Virus record (IMG/VR): IMGVR_UViG_3300022747_000014
Source: a virus
Lineage: Duplodnaviria; Heunggongvirae; Uroviricota; Caudoviricetes
Direction: 5' to 3' (one strand)
DNA length: 10,431 nucleotides
Part shown: positions 1 through 9,133 of the stretch, piece by piece
Numbering within the stretch: the stretch's first letter is position 1
How the letters are laid out: the number at the start of each line of letters is the position of its first letter
Position numbers and translations under genes: made by a program
Notes under the pieces: generated by a model
Database searches by the model: none
What the model saw: the letters and a program-made list of their open reading frames with translations, nothing else
What the model was told of the DNA's origin: nothing

Positions 1-2
1 AT

Positions 3-2015
3 AAGCCATGGCCATTGTTGCAACTGGTTAAGCGCAATACTGACATTGGCTATTACACAAAAGAATTACTAGAGAATTATACAGAAGACGAGATCAATCA
101 AATGGACTCGTATATCAAGCACGAGCGTGATGAAACATTTACCTATGTGGCCATGGAGCAATGGCGCGGTAAGTATCTTGTACAAAACCGTGTTACTAAC
201 GAAATATTTGAAACTCCGCAAGTGGCATACATGATGATTGCTGCAACACTGTTTATGGCCTATCCAAAAGAAACACGTATGCAATGGATCAAGGATTACT
301 ATGACGGTATCAGCAATTTTGACATTAGTTTGCCCACACCTATTATGGCTGGTTTGCGTACTCCTCAAAAGCAATTCAGCTCGTGTGTACTCATTGAGTC
401 AGACGATAGCTTAGACAGCATTAATGCCACTGCATCTTCAATTGTCAAGTACGTAAGTCAAAAGGCCGGTATCGGAATCGGCACAGGTCGTATTCGTGCC
501 CTTGGAAGTCCCATTCGTTCAGGTGACGCATACCACACTGGTGTTACGCCATTCTTAAAGCTATTCCAAGCAGCTACACGTAGTTGCAGCCAAGGCGGCG
601 TGCGTAACGGCGCAGCCACAGCATACTATCCAATTTGGCATTTAGAAGTAGAAGATCTGTTGGTATTAAAGAACAACAAAGGCACAGAGGATAACAGAGT
701 ACGCCAGATGGATTACGGCGTCCAATTTAACAAATTAATGTACGAAAGACTCATTCAAGGCGGCGATATTACCCTGTTTAGCCCCCACGATGTGCCGGAA
801 ATGTACGAAGCTTTCTTCAACAACCAAGAGCGCTTTAAAGAACTTTACGAACGTGCAGAACGCAATACCAAACTACGCAAGAAAACATTTAAAGCAGCGG
901 ATTTGTTTGCCAAGTTTATGCAAGAGCGCAAAGACACAGGTCGTATCTATTTAATGAACGTGGATCATGCAAATACGCATAGTCCTTTTAAAGAAGAATT
1001 ACATCCTATCAAAATGAGTAACTTGTGTACTGAAATCGACTTGCCCACTAAACCATTAAATGACATTAATGATGAAATGGGTCGTATTGCTTTGTGTACA
1101 TTGAGTGCACAAAACTGGGGCAACGTTAAGAAGCCACAAGATTTTGAACGTATGTGTACATTGGCAGTGCGTGGATTAGATGCATTGTTGAGCTATCAGA
1201 ACTATCCAGTTAAAGCAGCAGAACTTGCCACTAAAGAGTTCCGTCCAATTGGTAACGGTATTATCAACTTTGCCTACTTCTTGGCCAAGCATGATGTATC
1301 TTACAGTGATCCAGCGGCATTGGCACTAGTCGACGAATATGCAGAAGCATGGAGCTACTACTTGATCAAAGCCAGTGCAGACTTGGCCAAGGAACAAGGT
1401 CCGTGTGAACTATGGCAAGAGTTAAAGTATGCAGATGGCATCCTTCCAATTGACACACGTAAGAAAGAAGTTGACGAACTAGTAGAACACAAAGAGCGTA
1501 TGCCATGGCGTGCCCTCCGTGAACAAATTTTAACTTATGGTATCCGCAATGCAACACTAATGGCTCTAATGCCGGCAGAAACAAGTGCACAGATCAGTAA
1601 TGCCACAAACGGTATTGAATCTCCGCGCAGTTATGTATCAGTGAAGCAAAGCAAGCATGGCGTATTAAAACAGGTTGTACCTGAATTTAAGAAACTCAAG
1701 AACAAGTATCAATTGTTATGGGACCAAGAATCTCCTGAAGGCTACTTAAAACTTTGTGCAGTATTACAGAAATATATTGATCAAGGCATTAGTGTCAACA
1801 CTTCGTATAATCCCAAGTTCTACGAAGACGAAAAGATTCCAATGAGTGAGATGCTCCAGCACCTGATCATGTGCTACAAATACGGAACTAAACAACTTTA
1901 CTATTTCAACACCAACGACGGCCAGGGCGAAATTGACGTTGATAAAATGTCTACAGCCCTGCAAATGCCAACCGACATTGACGATGACGCAAACTGCGAT
2001 AGCTGTGTGATATGA
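3..2015 (+). CDS. nrdA: Ribonucleoside-diphosphate reductase class Ia, alpha subunit (5'-truncated by the window edge)
   Basis: Frame is open from base 3 (KPWPLLQLVKRN...), so the TTG at 15 is not the true start. By comparison with E. coli-type NrdA, about 90-100 N-terminal residues are missing. Catalytic motifs: FSSCVLI (C225 equivalent), SNLCTEI (N437/C439/E441), ALCTLS (C462), LYYFN (Y730/Y731) and a C-terminal shuttle Cys pair CDSC. Confidence 0.99.
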   Translation, partial: KPWPLLQLVKRNTDIGYYTKELLENYTEDEINQMDSYIKHERDETFTYVAMEQWRGKYLVQNRVTNEIFETPQVAYMMIAATLFMAYPKETRMQWIKDYYDGISNFDISLPTPIMAGLRTPQKQFSSCVLIESDDSLDSINATASSIVKYVSQKAGIGIGTGRIRALGSPIRSGDAYHTGVTPFLKLFQAATRSCSQGGVRNGAATAYYPIWHLEVEDLLVLKNNKGTEDNRVRQMDYGVQFNKLMYERLIQGGDITLFSPHDVPEMYEAFFNNQERFKELYERAERNTKLRKKTFKAADLFAKFMQERKDTGRIYLMNVDHANTHSPFKEELHPIKMSNLCTEIDLPTKPLNDINDEMGRIALCTLSAQNWGNVKKPQDFERMCTLAVRGLDALLSYQNYPVKAAELATKEFRPIGNGIINFAYFLAKHDVSYSDPAALALVDEYAEAWSYYLIKASADLAKEQGPCELWQELKYADGILPIDTRKKEVDELVEHKERMPWRALREQILTYGIRNATLMALMPAETSAQISNATNGIESPRSYVSVKQSKHGVLKQVVPEFKKLKNKYQLLWDQESPEGYLKLCAVLQKYIDQGISVNTSYNPKFYEDEKIPMSEMLQHLIMCYKYGTKQLYYFNTNDGQGEIDVDKMSTALQMPTDIDDDANCDSCVI

Positions 2016-2803
2016 AGCCCAGTGTACTGATTGCAGCAGGATGCAGTTGGGTAGCAGCAAAAGCTATCGACGTTGATCCTGCTGCGACTACATTAAATTT
2101 TGATCATGTTGAGGATCCTACGGTAGTCGAAACATTGAGTTTTGCAGGACTACTTAGGCAGCAATTGGGACTAGATCAATTGGTCTTACTTGCTGCACAT
2201 GGTTCTAATAATGAAAGGCAATTGCAGGGACTAGTGGATTTTATTGAATCAAATAAAAATAATTATTCTAAGGTTTATGTTATATGGGGATTGACTAGCA
2301 TTTATCGATGGGACCTGTACATTGACTCCATTGGCAAGGTAGAGAATTGCACAATGACCGGATATATGAGACACCCTGATCTTAAAGATACAGTTAAACA
2401 TTATTTTTCCAACCATTGGAACAAAGATTACGAGTTAAAGAAACTTGGAAAGAACATTACATTATTAAACGGATACTTGAATAATTTGAGCATAGATCAC
2501 TTGTTTTTCAACAGCTTTCAAAGTTATAATGCAAAGGATCTTTTCTCTAACATAGAGTCAAAGTATTTTTATAGAGTTGAAGAACAGAATAATGATATGT
2601 TAAGTTTGCTATGCAGTGTAAATAATATTCCAGCACCGAATAATTCTGTGCCATGGCTAAATCTACTAGGTGCATATTCGCATAACTCAGTAAAGCAATT
2701 GCAGCAAATTGGCCAGCTGGATCGAGCTACTGCCCATCCTACTGCGGCTGCACATGCAACTATAGCAGAAGAATTGCATAGATATATAAAGGAACAACAA
2801 TGA
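2012..2803 (+). CDS. SGNH/GDSL-like hydrolase-fold protein 1 (GCS variant), function unknown
   Basis: LIAAGCSW (block I-like, GDS changed to GCS), AAHGSNN (block II-like), YVIWGLTS after the central strand, and C-terminal DRATAHPT (block V His-Pro). ATGA overlaps with both the nrdA stop and the nrdB start. No signal peptide. Confidence 0.75.
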   Translation: MKPSVLIAAGCSWVAAKAIDVDPAATTLNFDHVEDPTVVETLSFAGLLRQQLGLDQLVLLAAHGSNNERQLQGLVDFIESNKNNYSKVYVIWGLTSIYRWDLYIDSIGKVENCTMTGYMRHPDLKDTVKHYFSNHWNKDYELKKLGKNITLLNGYLNNLSIDHLFFNSFQSYNAKDLFSNIESKYFYRVEEQNNDMLSLLCSVNNIPAPNNSVPWLNLLGAYSHNSVKQLQQIGQLDRATAHPTAAAHATIAEELHRYIKEQQ

Positions 2804-3927
2804 GCGTATTCAATTTAAACGATAAGAAAAAACACACTGAAAAATTGGCGTTCTTAGATAGCGCAGGTCCCACTGCGGTCCAGCGTTACGAGACACTAAA
2901 GTACAGACAATTTGACAAGTTAACAGACAAACAATTGGGATTCTTCTGGAGACCCGAAGAAGTTGATGTTATGCGAGATGCCAAAGACTTCAAGGAACTA
3001 ACAGATTTTGAACAACATATTTTTACAAGCAATCTCAAACGACAAATTCTTTTGGACAGTGTCCAGGGTCGTAGCCCCAATCTTGCTTTTTTACCTTTAT
3101 GCAGTTTACCTGAACTTGAAACATGGGTACAAACTTGGGCATTCAATGAAACGATCCACAGTCGTTCTTACACCCATATCATTCGTAACGTTTACAGTGA
3201 TCCTGGCAGAGTCTTTGATGAACTATTAACCATTGAGCCCATTGTTAATTGTGCCAATGACATTAGCAAGTATTATGATGATGTCATTGAATACAGTACT
3301 TGGCATCGTGCATTGGGTGTCGGCAAACACGTTATCAATGGCAAGGAAATTGTTGTTGACGAATATGAGTTAAAAAAGAAGTTGTGGTTGTGTATCAACA
3401 GCGTCAACGCACTAGAAGGTATTCGCTTCTATGTTAGCTTTGCATGTAGTTGGGCGTTTGCTGAACTTAAGAAGATGGAAGGCAACGCCAAGATTATTAA
3501 ATTGATCTGTCGCGACGAAAACGTACACTTGGCCGGCACACAGTTGTTGATCAAGTTGTTACCAACAGATGATCCGGATTTTGCAAAAATCAAGGAAGAA
3601 TGTCGTGCAGAATGTACTGCCATGTTCTTAAGTGCGGCGCAGCAAGAAAAGACCTGGGCAGAATATCTGTTTAAAGATGGTTCAATGATTGGTCTTAACA
3701 CTCAGTTGTTGTGCCAATACATTGATTGGCTAACTTGCAAGCGTATGAACACATCTGGATTAGACTGTGGTATCAAACCGGGATCGAACCCACTACCGTG
3801 GACACAAAAGTGGATCGCAGGTAGCGAAGTGCAAGTGGCACCACAAGAAACTGAAATTTCTAGTTATGTAGTTGGCGGCACCAAGCAGGACGTTGATAGC
3901 AACACGTTCAAAGGCTTTAGTTTGTGA
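2800..3927 (+). CDS. nrdB: Ribonucleoside-diphosphate reductase class Ia, beta subunit
   Basis: FFWRPEEV (W48 equivalent), LLDSVQ (D84), NETIHSRSY (E115/H118/radical Y122), LEGIRFY (E204), RDENVH (E238/H241), C-terminal APQETEISSY (Y356). AAGGA Shine-Dalgarno at 2789-2793. Confidence 0.99.
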   Translation: MSVFNLNDKKKHTEKLAFLDSAGPTAVQRYETLKYRQFDKLTDKQLGFFWRPEEVDVMRDAKDFKELTDFEQHIFTSNLKRQILLDSVQGRSPNLAFLPLCSLPELETWVQTWAFNETIHSRSYTHIIRNVYSDPGRVFDELLTIEPIVNCANDISKYYDDVIEYSTWHRALGVGKHVINGKEIVVDEYELKKKLWLCINSVNALEGIRFYVSFACSWAFAELKKMEGNAKIIKLICRDENVHLAGTQLLIKLLPTDDPDFAKIKEECRAECTAMFLSAAQQEKTWAEYLFKDGSMIGLNTQLLCQYIDWLTCKRMNTSGLDCGIKPGSNPLPWTQKWIAGSEVQVAPQETEISSYVVGGTKQDVDSNTFKGFSL

Positions 3928-4637
3928 AGATACTCGTTGCAGGGTGTAGCTTTGCAACTGAGTTAACTGACATTATTAAACAAAAGATTCCCGGCTCCAC
4001 TGTTACTAACGTTTCGCATTGTGGTGTTGGGAATCGGTTTATATCTGATAGTGTAGTTGTTGCTACTTCCAAAGAAAAGTTTGATTTAATCTATGTTAGT
4101 TGGACTGGCCTTAGTCGGCACGATGTTCTAATAGATTCAGCTAACTACAGATTGTTTGATGATTGGGTCAACCGAGCAAGTATCTACAACCTGAAATATA
4201 TTTCCACTGGGGGTGTAGGTAGTTGGGACCAATTGGAACATAGTTTTGCTGACATGTTGTTTGGTGGATATCATAGATTTGTTGACCAAGAACAGTTACA
4301 GTTCAACAGTCTAACAGAGATGATAAAGATACAAAGCTACCTTGGGTCATTGAATGTTCCGCATTATTTTACATCAATGATTAATCAGCTAGATGCAAGT
4401 CCCGACATTATGTATGAGAAAACATGCGAATACGGCGCACGTAGATATCCTGCTAATGCTTGCTTAGTAAATGCAATAGATCGCCAACGTTGGATATTAG
4501 ACAACAACCAAGGCATGCACGAAACTACCAAGCAACTTGATCTTTTAGGTCCTGATGATTTTCACCCTAGCGAACTAGGATATAAATATTGGATAGATTT
4601 GTTTGTTGACCGACTACACAAAGATAAAATAATATAA
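3924..4637 (+). CDS. SGNH/GDSL-like hydrolase-fold protein 2 (GCS variant), function unknown
   Basis: GTG start overlapping the nrdB TGA (GTGA). Motifs ILVAGCSF, SHCGVGN, YVSWTGLS and a canonical D-x-x-H-P (DDFHPS). Shares motif order with 2012..2803. Confidence 0.78.
   Translation: MKILVAGCSFATELTDIIKQKIPGSTVTNVSHCGVGNRFISDSVVVATSKEKFDLIYVSWTGLSRHDVLIDSANYRLFDDWVNRASIYNLKYISTGGVGSWDQLEHSFADMLFGGYHRFVDQEQLQFNSLTEMIKIQSYLGSLNVPHYFTSMINQLDASPDIMYEKTCEYGARRYPANACLVNAIDRQRWILDNNQGMHETTKQLDLLGPDDFHPSELGYKYWIDLFVDRLHKDKII
4581..4588 (+). promoter_or_regulatory. Candidate T4-type late promoter (TATAAATA) inside the 3' end of SGNH-2, upstream of glutaredoxin
   Basis: Exact match to the T4 gp55-dependent late consensus, 58 nt before the grx start. 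In AT-rich DNA about one chance hit per 10 kb is expected, so this is weak alone. Confidence 0.35.
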
Positions 4638-4646
4638 AGGAATAAA

Positions 4647-4889
4647 ATGTTAACAGTATATTCAAAAAGCAACTGCCCATTCTGCGACCGAGCAAAAGCT
4701 CTATTAGAGAGCAAAGGTGTGGAATACAAAACAGTTAGTATCGAAGAAGATCAAGATGCACGTCAGCACCTTTTAGACATGGGACTACGCAGTGTTCCGC
4801 AAATCTTCAACGGCACAACATTGATTCAAGGCGGATACCAAGGCATTGCTGGCAAAGGCGAAGAGTTCTGGACTGAACTAAAACAATGA
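4647..4889 (+). CDS. grx: Glutaredoxin (dithiol, CPFC), probable electron donor for NrdAB
   Basis: TVYSKSNCPFC active site, RSVPQIF cis-Pro motif, GG motif, AAGGA RBS at 4637-4641, located in the RNR cluster. Confidence 0.96.
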   Translation: MLTVYSKSNCPFCDRAKALLESKGVEYKTVSIEEDQDARQHLLDMGLRSVPQIFNGTTLIQGGYQGIAGKGEEFWTELKQ

Positions 4890-5176
4890 GATTGCATCTA
4901 TATTATCAGCACCTAGAGGATAGAAATGATCAAGCCCGTGCAGAAGAACAGGCTGTATTGTTAGACCGTGGGCTGACATTTGAGGACGATTACATAGAAG
5001 AGCATCGCAGTCTTTACGACCACAACGATCCAACTCTTCATCCTGGCTACGCAAATCCAGGAGAAACATGTTTTTGTGAATTACCTGGGATGGACGGACC
5101 GTTGTGGCCCAAGCTATACAAAGATTATGTATTAGTGGCATCCGGGTGGGATAGTATTCGATCGATAAAGTTATAA
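4886..5176 (+). CDS. Hypothetical 96-aa protein, possibly a degenerate glutaredoxin-fold protein lacking CxxC
   Basis: ATGA overlap with the grx stop. The first 40 aa align by eye to the upstream Grx (see findings). Confidence 0.7.
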   Translation: MRLHLYYQHLEDRNDQARAEEQAVLLDRGLTFEDDYIEEHRSLYDHNDPTLHPGYANPGETCFCELPGMDGPLWPKLYKDYVLVASGWDSIRSIKL

Positions 5177-5195
5177 CCATTCAATTAAGGAAAAT

Positions 5196-5507
5196 ATGTT
5201 AATAGCAAAACAAAAAGATTACGAAGCAGGTGACATCCTGTGTTTCAAGTTACTCAATGGTGACGAAATTGTGGCAAAACTTGTGGAAGTGGATGCTGCT
5301 AAGTTTGTATTAAGCAAACCGTGCACGGTTATTCCAAGCCAACAAGGACTAGGGCTGATGCAAAGCCTAATGTGCGGTGATATAAATAGTAATATAACTG
5401 TCTCAAAGCAACACGTGATGATGCATAGCCCTGTTATCGCAGATATTGAATCTCACTATATCCGTACTACAACAGGCATTGAGGTCAGCAAAGGAATAAT
5501 TAAGTAA
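5196..5507 (+). CDS. Conserved-looking phage protein with Sm/LSm-like fold signature
   Basis: TAAGGAA RBS upstream. GDILCFKLLNGDEIVAKLVEVD...FVLSKP resembles the Sm1 motif (hydrophobic strand-L-x-N-G-x-E-h-x-x-x-L-x-x-x-D). Confidence 0.6.
   Translation: MLIAKQKDYEAGDILCFKLLNGDEIVAKLVEVDAAKFVLSKPCTVIPSQQGLGLMQSLMCGDINSNITVSKQHVMMHSPVIADIESHYIRTTTGIEVSKGIIK
5381..5388 (+). promoter_or_regulatory. Candidate T4-type late promoter (TATAAATA) upstream of the PAAR and 610-aa structural genes
   Basis: Exact consensus, 118 nt before the PAAR start. Same GATATAAATA 10-mer as at 4579-4588. Confidence 0.4.
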
Positions 5508-5836
5508 TGCCATTTCCAGCCGCAGTAGTAGGTTTACCAGCTTCAGTAACAGGATTTCCTGTACCTCCGTTAGGGCCCGGGACAATCACAATGGGCGCAG
5601 TAAAAACGTTCATCAATGGTATGCCGGTAGCAACTATTGCATCCACAGTTAGTCCGCACGGTAACCCTGTTAATCCCAAGCAGCCGGGATTTAATCCAGC
5701 ATGCGCTGCTTCGGTAATTGCAACAGGTATTCCCAACATTCTAGTAGAGTTTAAACCTATTGCCTATGTTGGCTCAGTGTGCACTTGTGGACAACACAAA
5801 GTGACGTTGGGCATTCCCAATGTGTTGGTAGGATAA
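5507..5836 (+). CDS. PAAR-repeat spike-tip protein (T4 gp5.4-like)
   Basis: Three PAAR-like repeats (PAAVVG, FINGMPVAT, LVEFKPIAYVG), PHG and CTCGQH putative metal ligands, and terminal G-x-PNVLVG. TAATG overlap with the upstream gene. Confidence 0.85.
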   Translation: MPFPAAVVGLPASVTGFPVPPLGPGTITMGAVKTFINGMPVATIASTVSPHGNPVNPKQPGFNPACAASVIATGIPNILVEFKPIAYVGSVCTCGQHKVTLGIPNVLVG

Positions 5837-8343: not shown

Positions 8344-8916
8344 ATGTTTTTTGAAACTTATTACCGGTTGCTAGATGTAGGAGACTACTATCAAGCGAAA
8401 AATTGTAATCTAGCAGCTAGTGAGATAACCCAAATAATCCGTAGACAGTTTTCTGCTACGGATTATTCTTTTTCAACTTTAAGATCCAGTGAAGTATCCA
8501 AGGATACAATTTGTGTTAGTGGATTCTACGACAATGGGGAGATTGAGCTGGTGCTCTATTACAACCCGCAGCAGAGAATCTTTAAGAGCAAAAACATAGA
8601 CTGGCAACGATTGGTGTTTGATGTTGCAGAAGTGCTAACACACGAACTTATACACGACTACCAGGACCGAACAAAACAAAAGTTTAAGAAATACAAAAGT
8701 GATCAATTTGATCAAAGCTATCTAGGCGACGAGTCTGAGATTGATGCATATGCATTTAGCATATGTGCTGAAAGTTTAGTGTACAATAGACATTACAAGA
8801 AATGCTCTATGTACCAAGTGTATCGAAAGACTTTTGACAAAGACCGTTCAGTGATAGTAAAATTAGAAAAAGAAATACTTAAATATTTAAATAGACTGGA
8901 GCAAAACAATGACTAA
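8344..8916 (+). CDS. Putative zinc metallopeptidase (HExxH, gluzincin-like)
   Basis: THELIH (H100-E101-H104) plus downstream EIDAY (E132, probable third ligand). ATG directly follows the hydrolase TAA. Confidence 0.7.
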   Translation: MFFETYYRLLDVGDYYQAKNCNLAASEITQIIRRQFSATDYSFSTLRSSEVSKDTICVSGFYDNGEIELVLYYNPQQRIFKSKNIDWQRLVFDVAEVLTHELIHDYQDRTKQKFKKYKSDQFDQSYLGDESEIDAYAFSICAESLVYNRHYKKCSMYQVYRKTFDKDRSVIVKLEKEILKYLNRLEQNND

Positions 8917-9133
8917 GCCTGCCACAGAAGTAGAACTAGCATTTGACGAAGCATACGATGCAGACATTGCAGACGACGATTATGTATTTGTTATTGGGCC
9001 CAATGGTGAGCTTAAACAGGTTATTCTCCCGGATGACCTTCCATTTGAATCTCCTAAGAATGTATCCAAAATACTAAAAATGTTTAAAATTTGGGACATT
9101 GAACTACTTGACGGAAATGACACAATCCATTAA
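8909..9133 (+). CDS. Small acidic hypothetical protein (74 aa)
   Basis: 8-nt overlap with the upstream gene, GGAG RBS-like sequence upstream, 17 Asp/Glu versus 6 Lys. Confidence 0.8.
   Translation: MTKPATEVELAFDEAYDADIADDDYVFVIGPNGELKQVILPDDLPFESPKNVSKILKMFKIWDIELLDGNDTIH

Follow-up and report, generated by a model that had tools for sequence, protein, structure and literature searches.

The stretch of DNA analyzed here, referred to as the window, comprises 10,431 nucleotides of a virus of the Caudoviricetes (IMG/VR record IMGVR_UViG_3300022747_000014). It contains the genes for the two subunits of a class Ia ribonucleotide reductase (RNR), nrdA and nrdB, and the gene for a glutaredoxin, grx; two further genes, termed SG1 and SG2, are located at the nrdA-nrdB junction (slot 1) and the nrdB-grx junction (slot 2), respectively. 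We consider it likely that SG1 and SG2 are accessory cargo in a conserved nrdA-nrdB-grx operon, at two hot spots of insertion and exchange, and that they encode phage-only SGNH hydrolases of the GCS type, named after the motif that contains their nucleophile. Slot occupancy changes quickly even between closely related phages, and both slots are used by a range of unrelated genes. We mapped NrdA, NrdB, Grx, SG1, and SG2 on 157 loci and assembled a cargo-independent sample of 65 distinct loci that were chosen by NrdB similarity alone (73 to 85% identity). In this sample, slot 1 contained no gene in 50 of 65 loci, slot 2 contained none in 39 of 59, and the filled slots of all loci contained at least 15 unrelated cargo families.

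The window corresponds to the minus strand of positions 24250 to 34680 in a 57-kb IMG/VR viral contig (CheckV completeness, 16%), and 12 positions differ between it and the stored contig (G000:C1:24250-34680). Its plus strand carries all long open reading frames (ORFs) of the region, with the following features.

3-2015, plus strand: nrdA, class Ia RNR large subunit (Pfam Ribonuc_red_lgC, 5e-128; lgN, 4e-16; PHROG 84)
2012-2015, plus strand: ATGA overlap of the nrdA stop and the SG1 start, with no Shine-Dalgarno sequence upstream (read from the sequence)
2012-2803, plus strand: SG1, predicted GCS-type SGNH-fold hydrolase (DUF6071-like), 263 amino acids (aa), probable cargo of slot 1
2787-2803, plus strand: ribosome binding site (RBS) of nrdB (AAGGA, 2789-2793) and ATGA overlap (2800-2803), inside the 3' end of SG1
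2800-3927, plus strand: nrdB, class Ia RNR small subunit, 375 aa (Pfam Ribonuc_red_sm, 1e-40; PHROG 86, 7e-141)
3924-3927, plus strand: GTGA overlap of the nrdB stop and the SG2 start (read from the sequence)
3924-4637, plus strand: SG2, predicted GCS-type SGNH-fold hydrolase, 237 aa, GTG start, probable cargo of slot 2
4647-4889, plus strand: grx, glutaredoxin, 80 aa (Pfam Glutaredoxin, 9e-19)

A preliminary description of this DNA had reported the gene order nrdA-SG1-nrdB-SG2-grx with ATGA, ATGA, and GTGA overlaps and a 9-nt gap before grx, all of which is found in the sequence; the gap (4638 to 4646) includes AAGGA. It had also noted the lack of a clear RBS for SG1, and the 15 nt 5' of the SG1 ATG indeed contain no purine-rich Shine-Dalgarno sequence. 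SG2 has a weak AAAGG at 3910 to 3914, 9 nt 5' of its GTG. The assignments of NrdA, NrdB, and Grx are supported by Pfam E values of 1e-16 to 1e-128. Full-length NrdA has 766 aa in the contig, the start of its gene being located 285 nt 5' of the window; an ATP-cone is found in the full-length NrdA of relatives, and the Grx motif is CPFC.

Cargo turnover at two junctions of the nrd operon

The window is contained in sequencing runs of freshwater metagenomes, and the complete relatives of the window phage have genomes of 316 to 374 kb. Metagenomic contigs, some as long as 370 kb, yielded homologues of SG1 (45 to 58% identity) and SG2 (49 to 57%). Most SG1 loci have the order nrdA-SG1-nrdB-grx with an empty slot 2, and most SG2 loci have the order nrdA-nrdB-SG2-grx with an empty slot 1. 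Double occupancy as in the window was observed only in loci L016 and L017, whose SG2-like gene is 27 to 29% identical. The two families also switch slots: SG1 is found in slot 2 of L022, L023, L158, and L159, and an SG2-like gene in slot 1 of L137. Slot 2 of L055, L056, and L059 holds two or three SG2-type genes in tandem. Filled and empty loci are intermingled on the NrdB tree, even where its branches are very short.

The alternative cargo is diverse. (i) Isocitrate lyase (401 to 408 aa; Pfam ICL E value, 1e-102) is found in either slot (L005:2346-3557, L052:3222-4427, L066:3621-4847, and L159:3593-4816), and its presence in slot 1 is the sole difference between L158 and L159, which have identical SG1 genes. 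We note as a separate observation that a phage-borne glyoxylate-shunt enzyme resides within the RNR operon of related giant phages. (ii) A class II aldolase (Pfam, 2e-26) occupies slot 2 in L137 (6128-6799) and L140 (4543-5205); in L140, L142, and L143 the aldolase occurs together with isocitrate lyase and a 213-aa uncharacterized protein. (iii) A PGDYG protein is also among the slot cargo. (iv) Free-standing homing endonucleases of the GIY-YIG/NUMOD3 type are found in slot 2 (L113:1420-2160 and L106:6129-7259), and in L047 (2585-3349) a GIY-YIG gene divides nrdA into two ORFs. (v) The 235-aa protein in slot 1 of L048 (4170-4877) has no Pfam match; it begins with M-L-Y-F-F-G-D-S-W, has a C-terminal D-H-P, and seems to represent a third family of SGNH-like cargo, one in which GDS is canonical.

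The junctions themselves are compact. An empty slot 1 consists of the nrdA stop, 9 to 13 nt with AAGGAAA, and the nrdB start ATGAGC, and all cargo is inserted exactly between the nrdA stop and the nrdB RBS. Since the cargo lies between the upstream stop and the downstream RBS, the operon is left undisturbed, and the cargo itself contributes little or nothing in the way of translation signals. The same arrangement accounts for a C-terminal tail, K-E-K-N-N-E-R-I, that is conserved among many SG1 proteins. The tail corresponds to the nrdB RBS and start read in another frame and is no functional peptide motif.

The cargo genes have histories that differ from those of their flanks. The closest relative, L008, is 92% identical to the window in NrdA, 88% in NrdB, and 94% in Grx, but only 55% in SG1, and its slot 2 is empty. 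More generally, SG identity reaches a plateau at about 50 to 55% while the NrdB identity of the same pairs spans 44 to 93%. Synonymous divergence (dS) is 0.09 for SG1 and 1.43 for NrdB between L016 and L017, 0.29 for SG2 and 1.16 for NrdB between L055 and L059, and 2.97 for SG1 and 0.95 for NrdB between L007 and L010. As the SG genes and nrdB are discordant in both directions, segments must have been exchanged among relatives. L016/L017 and L055/L059 represent a young SG gene on older flanks; apart from these exceptions, the distances place the SG alleles as older than their flanks, not younger. The ratio of nonsynonymous to synonymous divergence (dN/dS) is 0.05 to 0.16 for SG1 and SG2 and 0.03 to 0.08 for NrdB, which shows at the sequence level that both are working proteins under purifying selection, with a constraint somewhat weaker than that on NrdB. 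The GC content at third codon positions (GC3) is 0.304 for SG1 and 0.333 for SG2, which are the 4th and 12th percentiles of the 81 contig genes, compared with 0.401 for nrdA and 0.424 for nrdB; the codon adaptation of SG1 and SG2 is ordinary.

Fold, motifs, and family of SG1 and SG2

The earlier assignment of both proteins to the SGNH fold holds. AlphaFold2 (AF2) models of SG1 and SG2, with a predicted local distance difference test (pLDDT) score of 90, show the three-layer alpha/beta/alpha fold with a five-stranded parallel sheet of the SGNH/GDSL superfamily, and this fold spans the entire length of both proteins. The Pfam profile PF00657 (GDSL), which has a gathering cutoff of 23.6 bits, is matched by SG1 above this value (26.0 bits) and by SG2 below it (12.6 bits); 6 of 38 SG1 homologues and 1 of 23 SG2 homologues match it. 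In common with SGNH/GDSL hydrolases, such as Escherichia coli TesA (thioesterase I), the CE2/CE3 carbohydrate esterases, and PF00657, SG1 and SG2 have an N-terminal Ser after strand 1 and a C-terminal Asp/His pair. Their sequence identity to solved SGNH structures is just 7 to 17%, and they depart from the superfamily in several respects. (i) In block I, the invariant nucleophile Ser (S12 in SG1 and S9 in SG2) lies in G-C-S right after strand 1, and the Asp of the canonical GDS is replaced by an invariant Cys adjoining this Ser in both families. (ii) Both family alignments contain an invariant G-N after strand 2 (G64/N67 in SG1 and G36 N37 in SG2). (iii) After strand 3, both alignments show W-(G/S)-x-x-S-R instead of the block III GxND, whose Asn forms the oxyanion hole of the superfamily together with the block II Gly. 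(iv) In block V, SG2 has D211-x-x-H214-P and SG1 the spacing variant D237-x4-H242-P; the His of HP does not vary in either family, nor does the Asp in SG1, and in SG2 the Asp is at least 90% conserved. (v) Insertions add 60 to 80 residues, and SG2 escapes Pfam.

The term paralogs, used in the preliminary description, is appropriate only in the sense of remote homology. SG1 and SG2 are homologous because they share motifs and fold and are linked by intermediate sequences. They are not recent duplicates: BLASTP between them gives a nonsignificant E value of 0.22, and the hhalign profile-profile comparison, although colinear across 194 columns, gives an E value of 0.008 and a probability of 5%. 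The two proteins are remote members of one phage-only, multicopy SGNH superfamily. It overlaps the Pfam family DUF6071 (PF19547), which is uncharacterized and was found in this analysis only in viral clusters. The window SG1 scores 16.2 bits against PF19547, below the gathering cutoff of 27 bits, the window SG2 shows no sequence match to it, and 26 of 38 SG1 homologues match it with an E value of 0.01 or better (best, 3.6e-8). The nearest ESM-Atlas clusters of SG1 and SG2 are 100% viral and DUF6071/SGNH-like, the SG2 model has a template modeling (TM) score of 0.83 to a DUF6071-labeled Atlas cluster, and PF19547 and the SG2 profile match the same ORFs in complete relatives. SG1 and SG2 are relatives of DUF6071 and not scored members.

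The SG2 profile retrieved 428 clusters among 1.84 billion representatives; among the best 150 of these, GCS was present in 119, and the SG1 profile also matched 18. The results point to a large phage-only SGNH branch with a rewired GCS motif. PHROGs, NCBIfam, and PADLOC contained no family for SG1 or SG2, tblastn of either protein against GenBank phages gave no match, and a megablast search of GenBank phages with the whole window returned only short nrdB matches. Among the papers available for searching, none mentions DUF6071.

Members of the superfamily also occur away from nrd. Five complete relatives each carry several DUF6071-like/SG2-like copies outside this operon, some of them in tandem. 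The 57-kb contig, which covers about 16% of the genome, contains no second close copy of SG1 or SG2; a 253-aa SGNH-like ORF on the same strand, 4858 to 4097 nt before the window, gives weak matches (E value of 0.03 with the SG1 profile and 0.14 with the SG2 profile). In marine viral contigs that lack RNR, more distant SG1-like genes (22 to 26% identity) are arranged in tandem, two to four in a row. In islands of this kind (L039:1-10802, L041, L038, and L028), the GCS-type arrays are located beside a canonical GDS gene, a carbamoyltransferase (Pfam, 6e-52), and P-loop sulfotransferase-like genes, and this gene content suggests a cluster for the tailoring of glycans or small molecules.

From their sequences, we infer that SG1 and SG2 are active cytoplasmic esterases or thioesterases. 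With low confidence, we would place their substrate among host small molecules, lipids, or glycan precursors and not with RNR or nucleotides. Because the fold resembles that of TesA and of carbohydrate esterases and because distant relatives have glycan-modifying neighbors, we lean, equally tentatively, toward host lipid or envelope-precursor metabolism, in which they would act on a cytoplasmic ester or thioester.

Alternative explanations and comparison with known systems

An RNR-linked function, in which the SG hydrolases would be auxiliaries of deoxynucleoside triphosphate supply, acting in nucleotide-related deacylation or together with glutaredoxin and placed in the operon for stoichiometric coexpression, would agree with the tight start/stop overlaps with nrdA and nrdB and with the invariant Cys that adjoins the nucleophile Ser in proteins encoded next to a redox protein gene. 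The placement of the orthologues also favors it and weighs against the cargo interpretation: SG1/SG2-type orthologues (at least 45% identity) are located in an nrd operon in every contig that shows context except L063, and this placement spans two lineages of NrdB with just 44% identity to each other, so that it could reflect a real functional tie. The same is true of a natural 345-aa ORF directly after nrdB in an ENA contig of 4353 nt (protein P0045), in which an SG1-type protein is fused to glutaredoxin, probably through loss of a stop codon in a 4-nt overlap. Two further points count against cargo insertion and its coexpression, namely, that no repeats or shared sequences were seen at cargo borders in the window, in its relatives, or between L158 and L159 and that the RNA-library contigs described below may include carried-over DNA. 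The association with nrd is, however, partly circular, since orthologue searches recover syntenic genes by construction, and family members are found elsewhere in complete genomes as well as in marine contigs that lack RNR. The chemistry of class Ia RNR requires no esterase, and most relatives with 73 to 85% identical NrdB have neither SG gene. The preliminary description had proposed a functional module coexpressed with RNR; as the slots are mostly empty and otherwise variably filled by unrelated genes, among them isocitrate lyase, aldolase, PGDYG, and homing endonucleases, a pattern that the same description had named as speaking against the module, this proposal is not supported, and we regard a function tied to RNR as unlikely.

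Its second proposal, a nonnuclease gene family that colonizes junctions of essential genes, fares better in part. Mobile DNA is known to target RNR genes (PMC3045599; PMC3653736), and in T4 the nrdA-nrdB junction is occupied by mobE, a free-standing HNH homing endonuclease gene whose start overlaps the nrdA stop and which has no translation initiation region (PMC2988022); its expression relies on upstream promoters (PMC2988022; PMC2790892). SG1 shares with mobE the junction, the overlap with the nrdA stop, the lack of an RBS (PMC2988022), and a patchy distribution among relatives. If GCS-type SGNH-like genes were selfish elements of this kind, targeting essential-gene junctions by a noncanonical mechanism, one would also expect their scattered occurrence on the NrdB tree, slot switching, tandem expansions in slot 2 (L055 and L059) and in the marine islands, low GC3, and the low SG1 dS on divergent flanks in L016 and L017. 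Unlike mobE, SG1 and SG2 have an esterase fold that keeps its Ser, His, and Asp and are under strong purifying selection; searches of Pfam, PHROGs, and NCBIfam detected no nuclease domain in them, in agreement with the reported absence of HNH, GIY-YIG, and LAGLIDADG motifs, for which Pfam and PHROGs gave no match. Homing elements and their coconverted flanks would be expected to be near-identical among carriers, but in the window and L008 flanks of 88 to 94% identity surround an SG1 of 55%, the opposite of a recent homing sweep with coconversion. The other homing endonuclease trait, sporadic occurrence between conserved genes with upstream-dependent expression, is seen in the SG genes and equally in all other slot cargo. 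The slots are shared with metabolic genes that are as variable at the same sites, even between contigs with identical SG1, and true GIY-YIG endonucleases in the operon could supply the breaks. The patchiness, slot switching, and dS discordance with nrdB noted by us therefore agree with junction colonization, but not with mobility specific to the family: because isocitrate lyase, aldolase, and PGDYG behave likewise at the same sites, mobility is a property of the hot spot and is not shown as a property of the SG family. A self-mobile SG family is, in our estimate, improbable.

A further parallel is provided by the hyperplastic regions of large phages and by the insertion of morons or auxiliary genes between their conserved genes. 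There, as here, variable cargo of lower GC content is found at fixed points between core genes, the translation signals of the neighbors remain intact, and exchange occurs among relatives. The nrd hot spots differ in that they lie within a tightly overlapped essential operon and that one hydrolase superfamily recurs in them, tandems included.

As to the proteins themselves, the SGNH fold might have been reused as a catalytically dead binding module, for instance, one that sequesters a host factor, with GCS and W-x-x-S-R marking the loss of the oxyanion hole. Neither the Asp of block I nor the GxND of block III is conserved, SG1 has D-x4-H in place of D-x-x-H, and SG2 falls under the Pfam GDSL cutoff. 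We nevertheless consider this very unlikely, since the Ser, the His, and the G-N after strand 2 are invariant, the Asp is invariant in SG1 and nearly so in SG2, and GCS is kept by most of the best 150 relatives, as expected of a conserved active site. More speculatively, this phage-only, multicopy, and fast-evolving DUF6071-like family might carry out an undescribed host-takeover or counterdefense reaction by Cys-Ser thioester or acyl-transfer chemistry; or the nrd placement in two RNR lineages and the fusion to Grx might reflect a nucleotide or redox tie or a nuclease-free targeting of junctions. We deem this set of ideas unlikely.

Expression, proposed mechanism, and implications

The use of operon expression signals by the SG genes, as proposed earlier, is borne out by the overlaps and by the lack of a Shine-Dalgarno sequence in front of SG1. 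In two further studies, contigs assembled from metatranscriptome libraries span all four operon junctions; a 26-kb contig in run X1 is probably explained by DNA or by the source sample. These contigs are compatible with operon transcription that includes the cargo and are no proof of transcription or of a single transcript. A consensus scan of positions 1 to 5600 for promoters and terminators gave sites not above those in shuffled sequence, so that internal signals are neither supported nor excluded, and identified no plus-strand terminator within the operon. Farther downstream, the RNA-library contigs of both studies almost disappear over 8353 to 9048, where a DNA run is level in depth; this segment includes most of a 190-aa ORF (8344 to 8916) that may be silent or late. 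The operon is followed on its 3' side by genes for a PAAR protein, a 610-aa protein, and a cell-wall hydrolase, and this neighborhood is kept in relatives.

For SG1 and SG2 as cargo of exchange hot spots, we propose the following mechanism. Homologous recombination between coinfecting relatives would drive the turnover, with the conserved nrdA, nrdB, and grx sequences serving as homology arms. The GIY-YIG homing endonucleases present in the operon may assist through double-strand breaks and carry neighboring cargo along; a model for such movement is mobE, which helps to carry I-TevIII along (PMC2790892). Once inserted, the cargo would be transcribed from the operon promoter, and SG1 would be translated by termination-reinitiation coupling to nrdA, as has been proposed for T4 mobE. 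The SG proteins would then act during early or middle infection.

Taken together, the data show that giant freshwater phages can use the gene junctions of an essential operon with tight overlaps as sites for cassettes and that the nrd cassettes include whole metabolic genes, such as those for isocitrate lyase and class II aldolase, beyond the homing endonucleases found in T4. They remove the idea of esterase partners for class Ia RNR, and the GCS-type SGNH branch is common enough to merit biochemical characterization.

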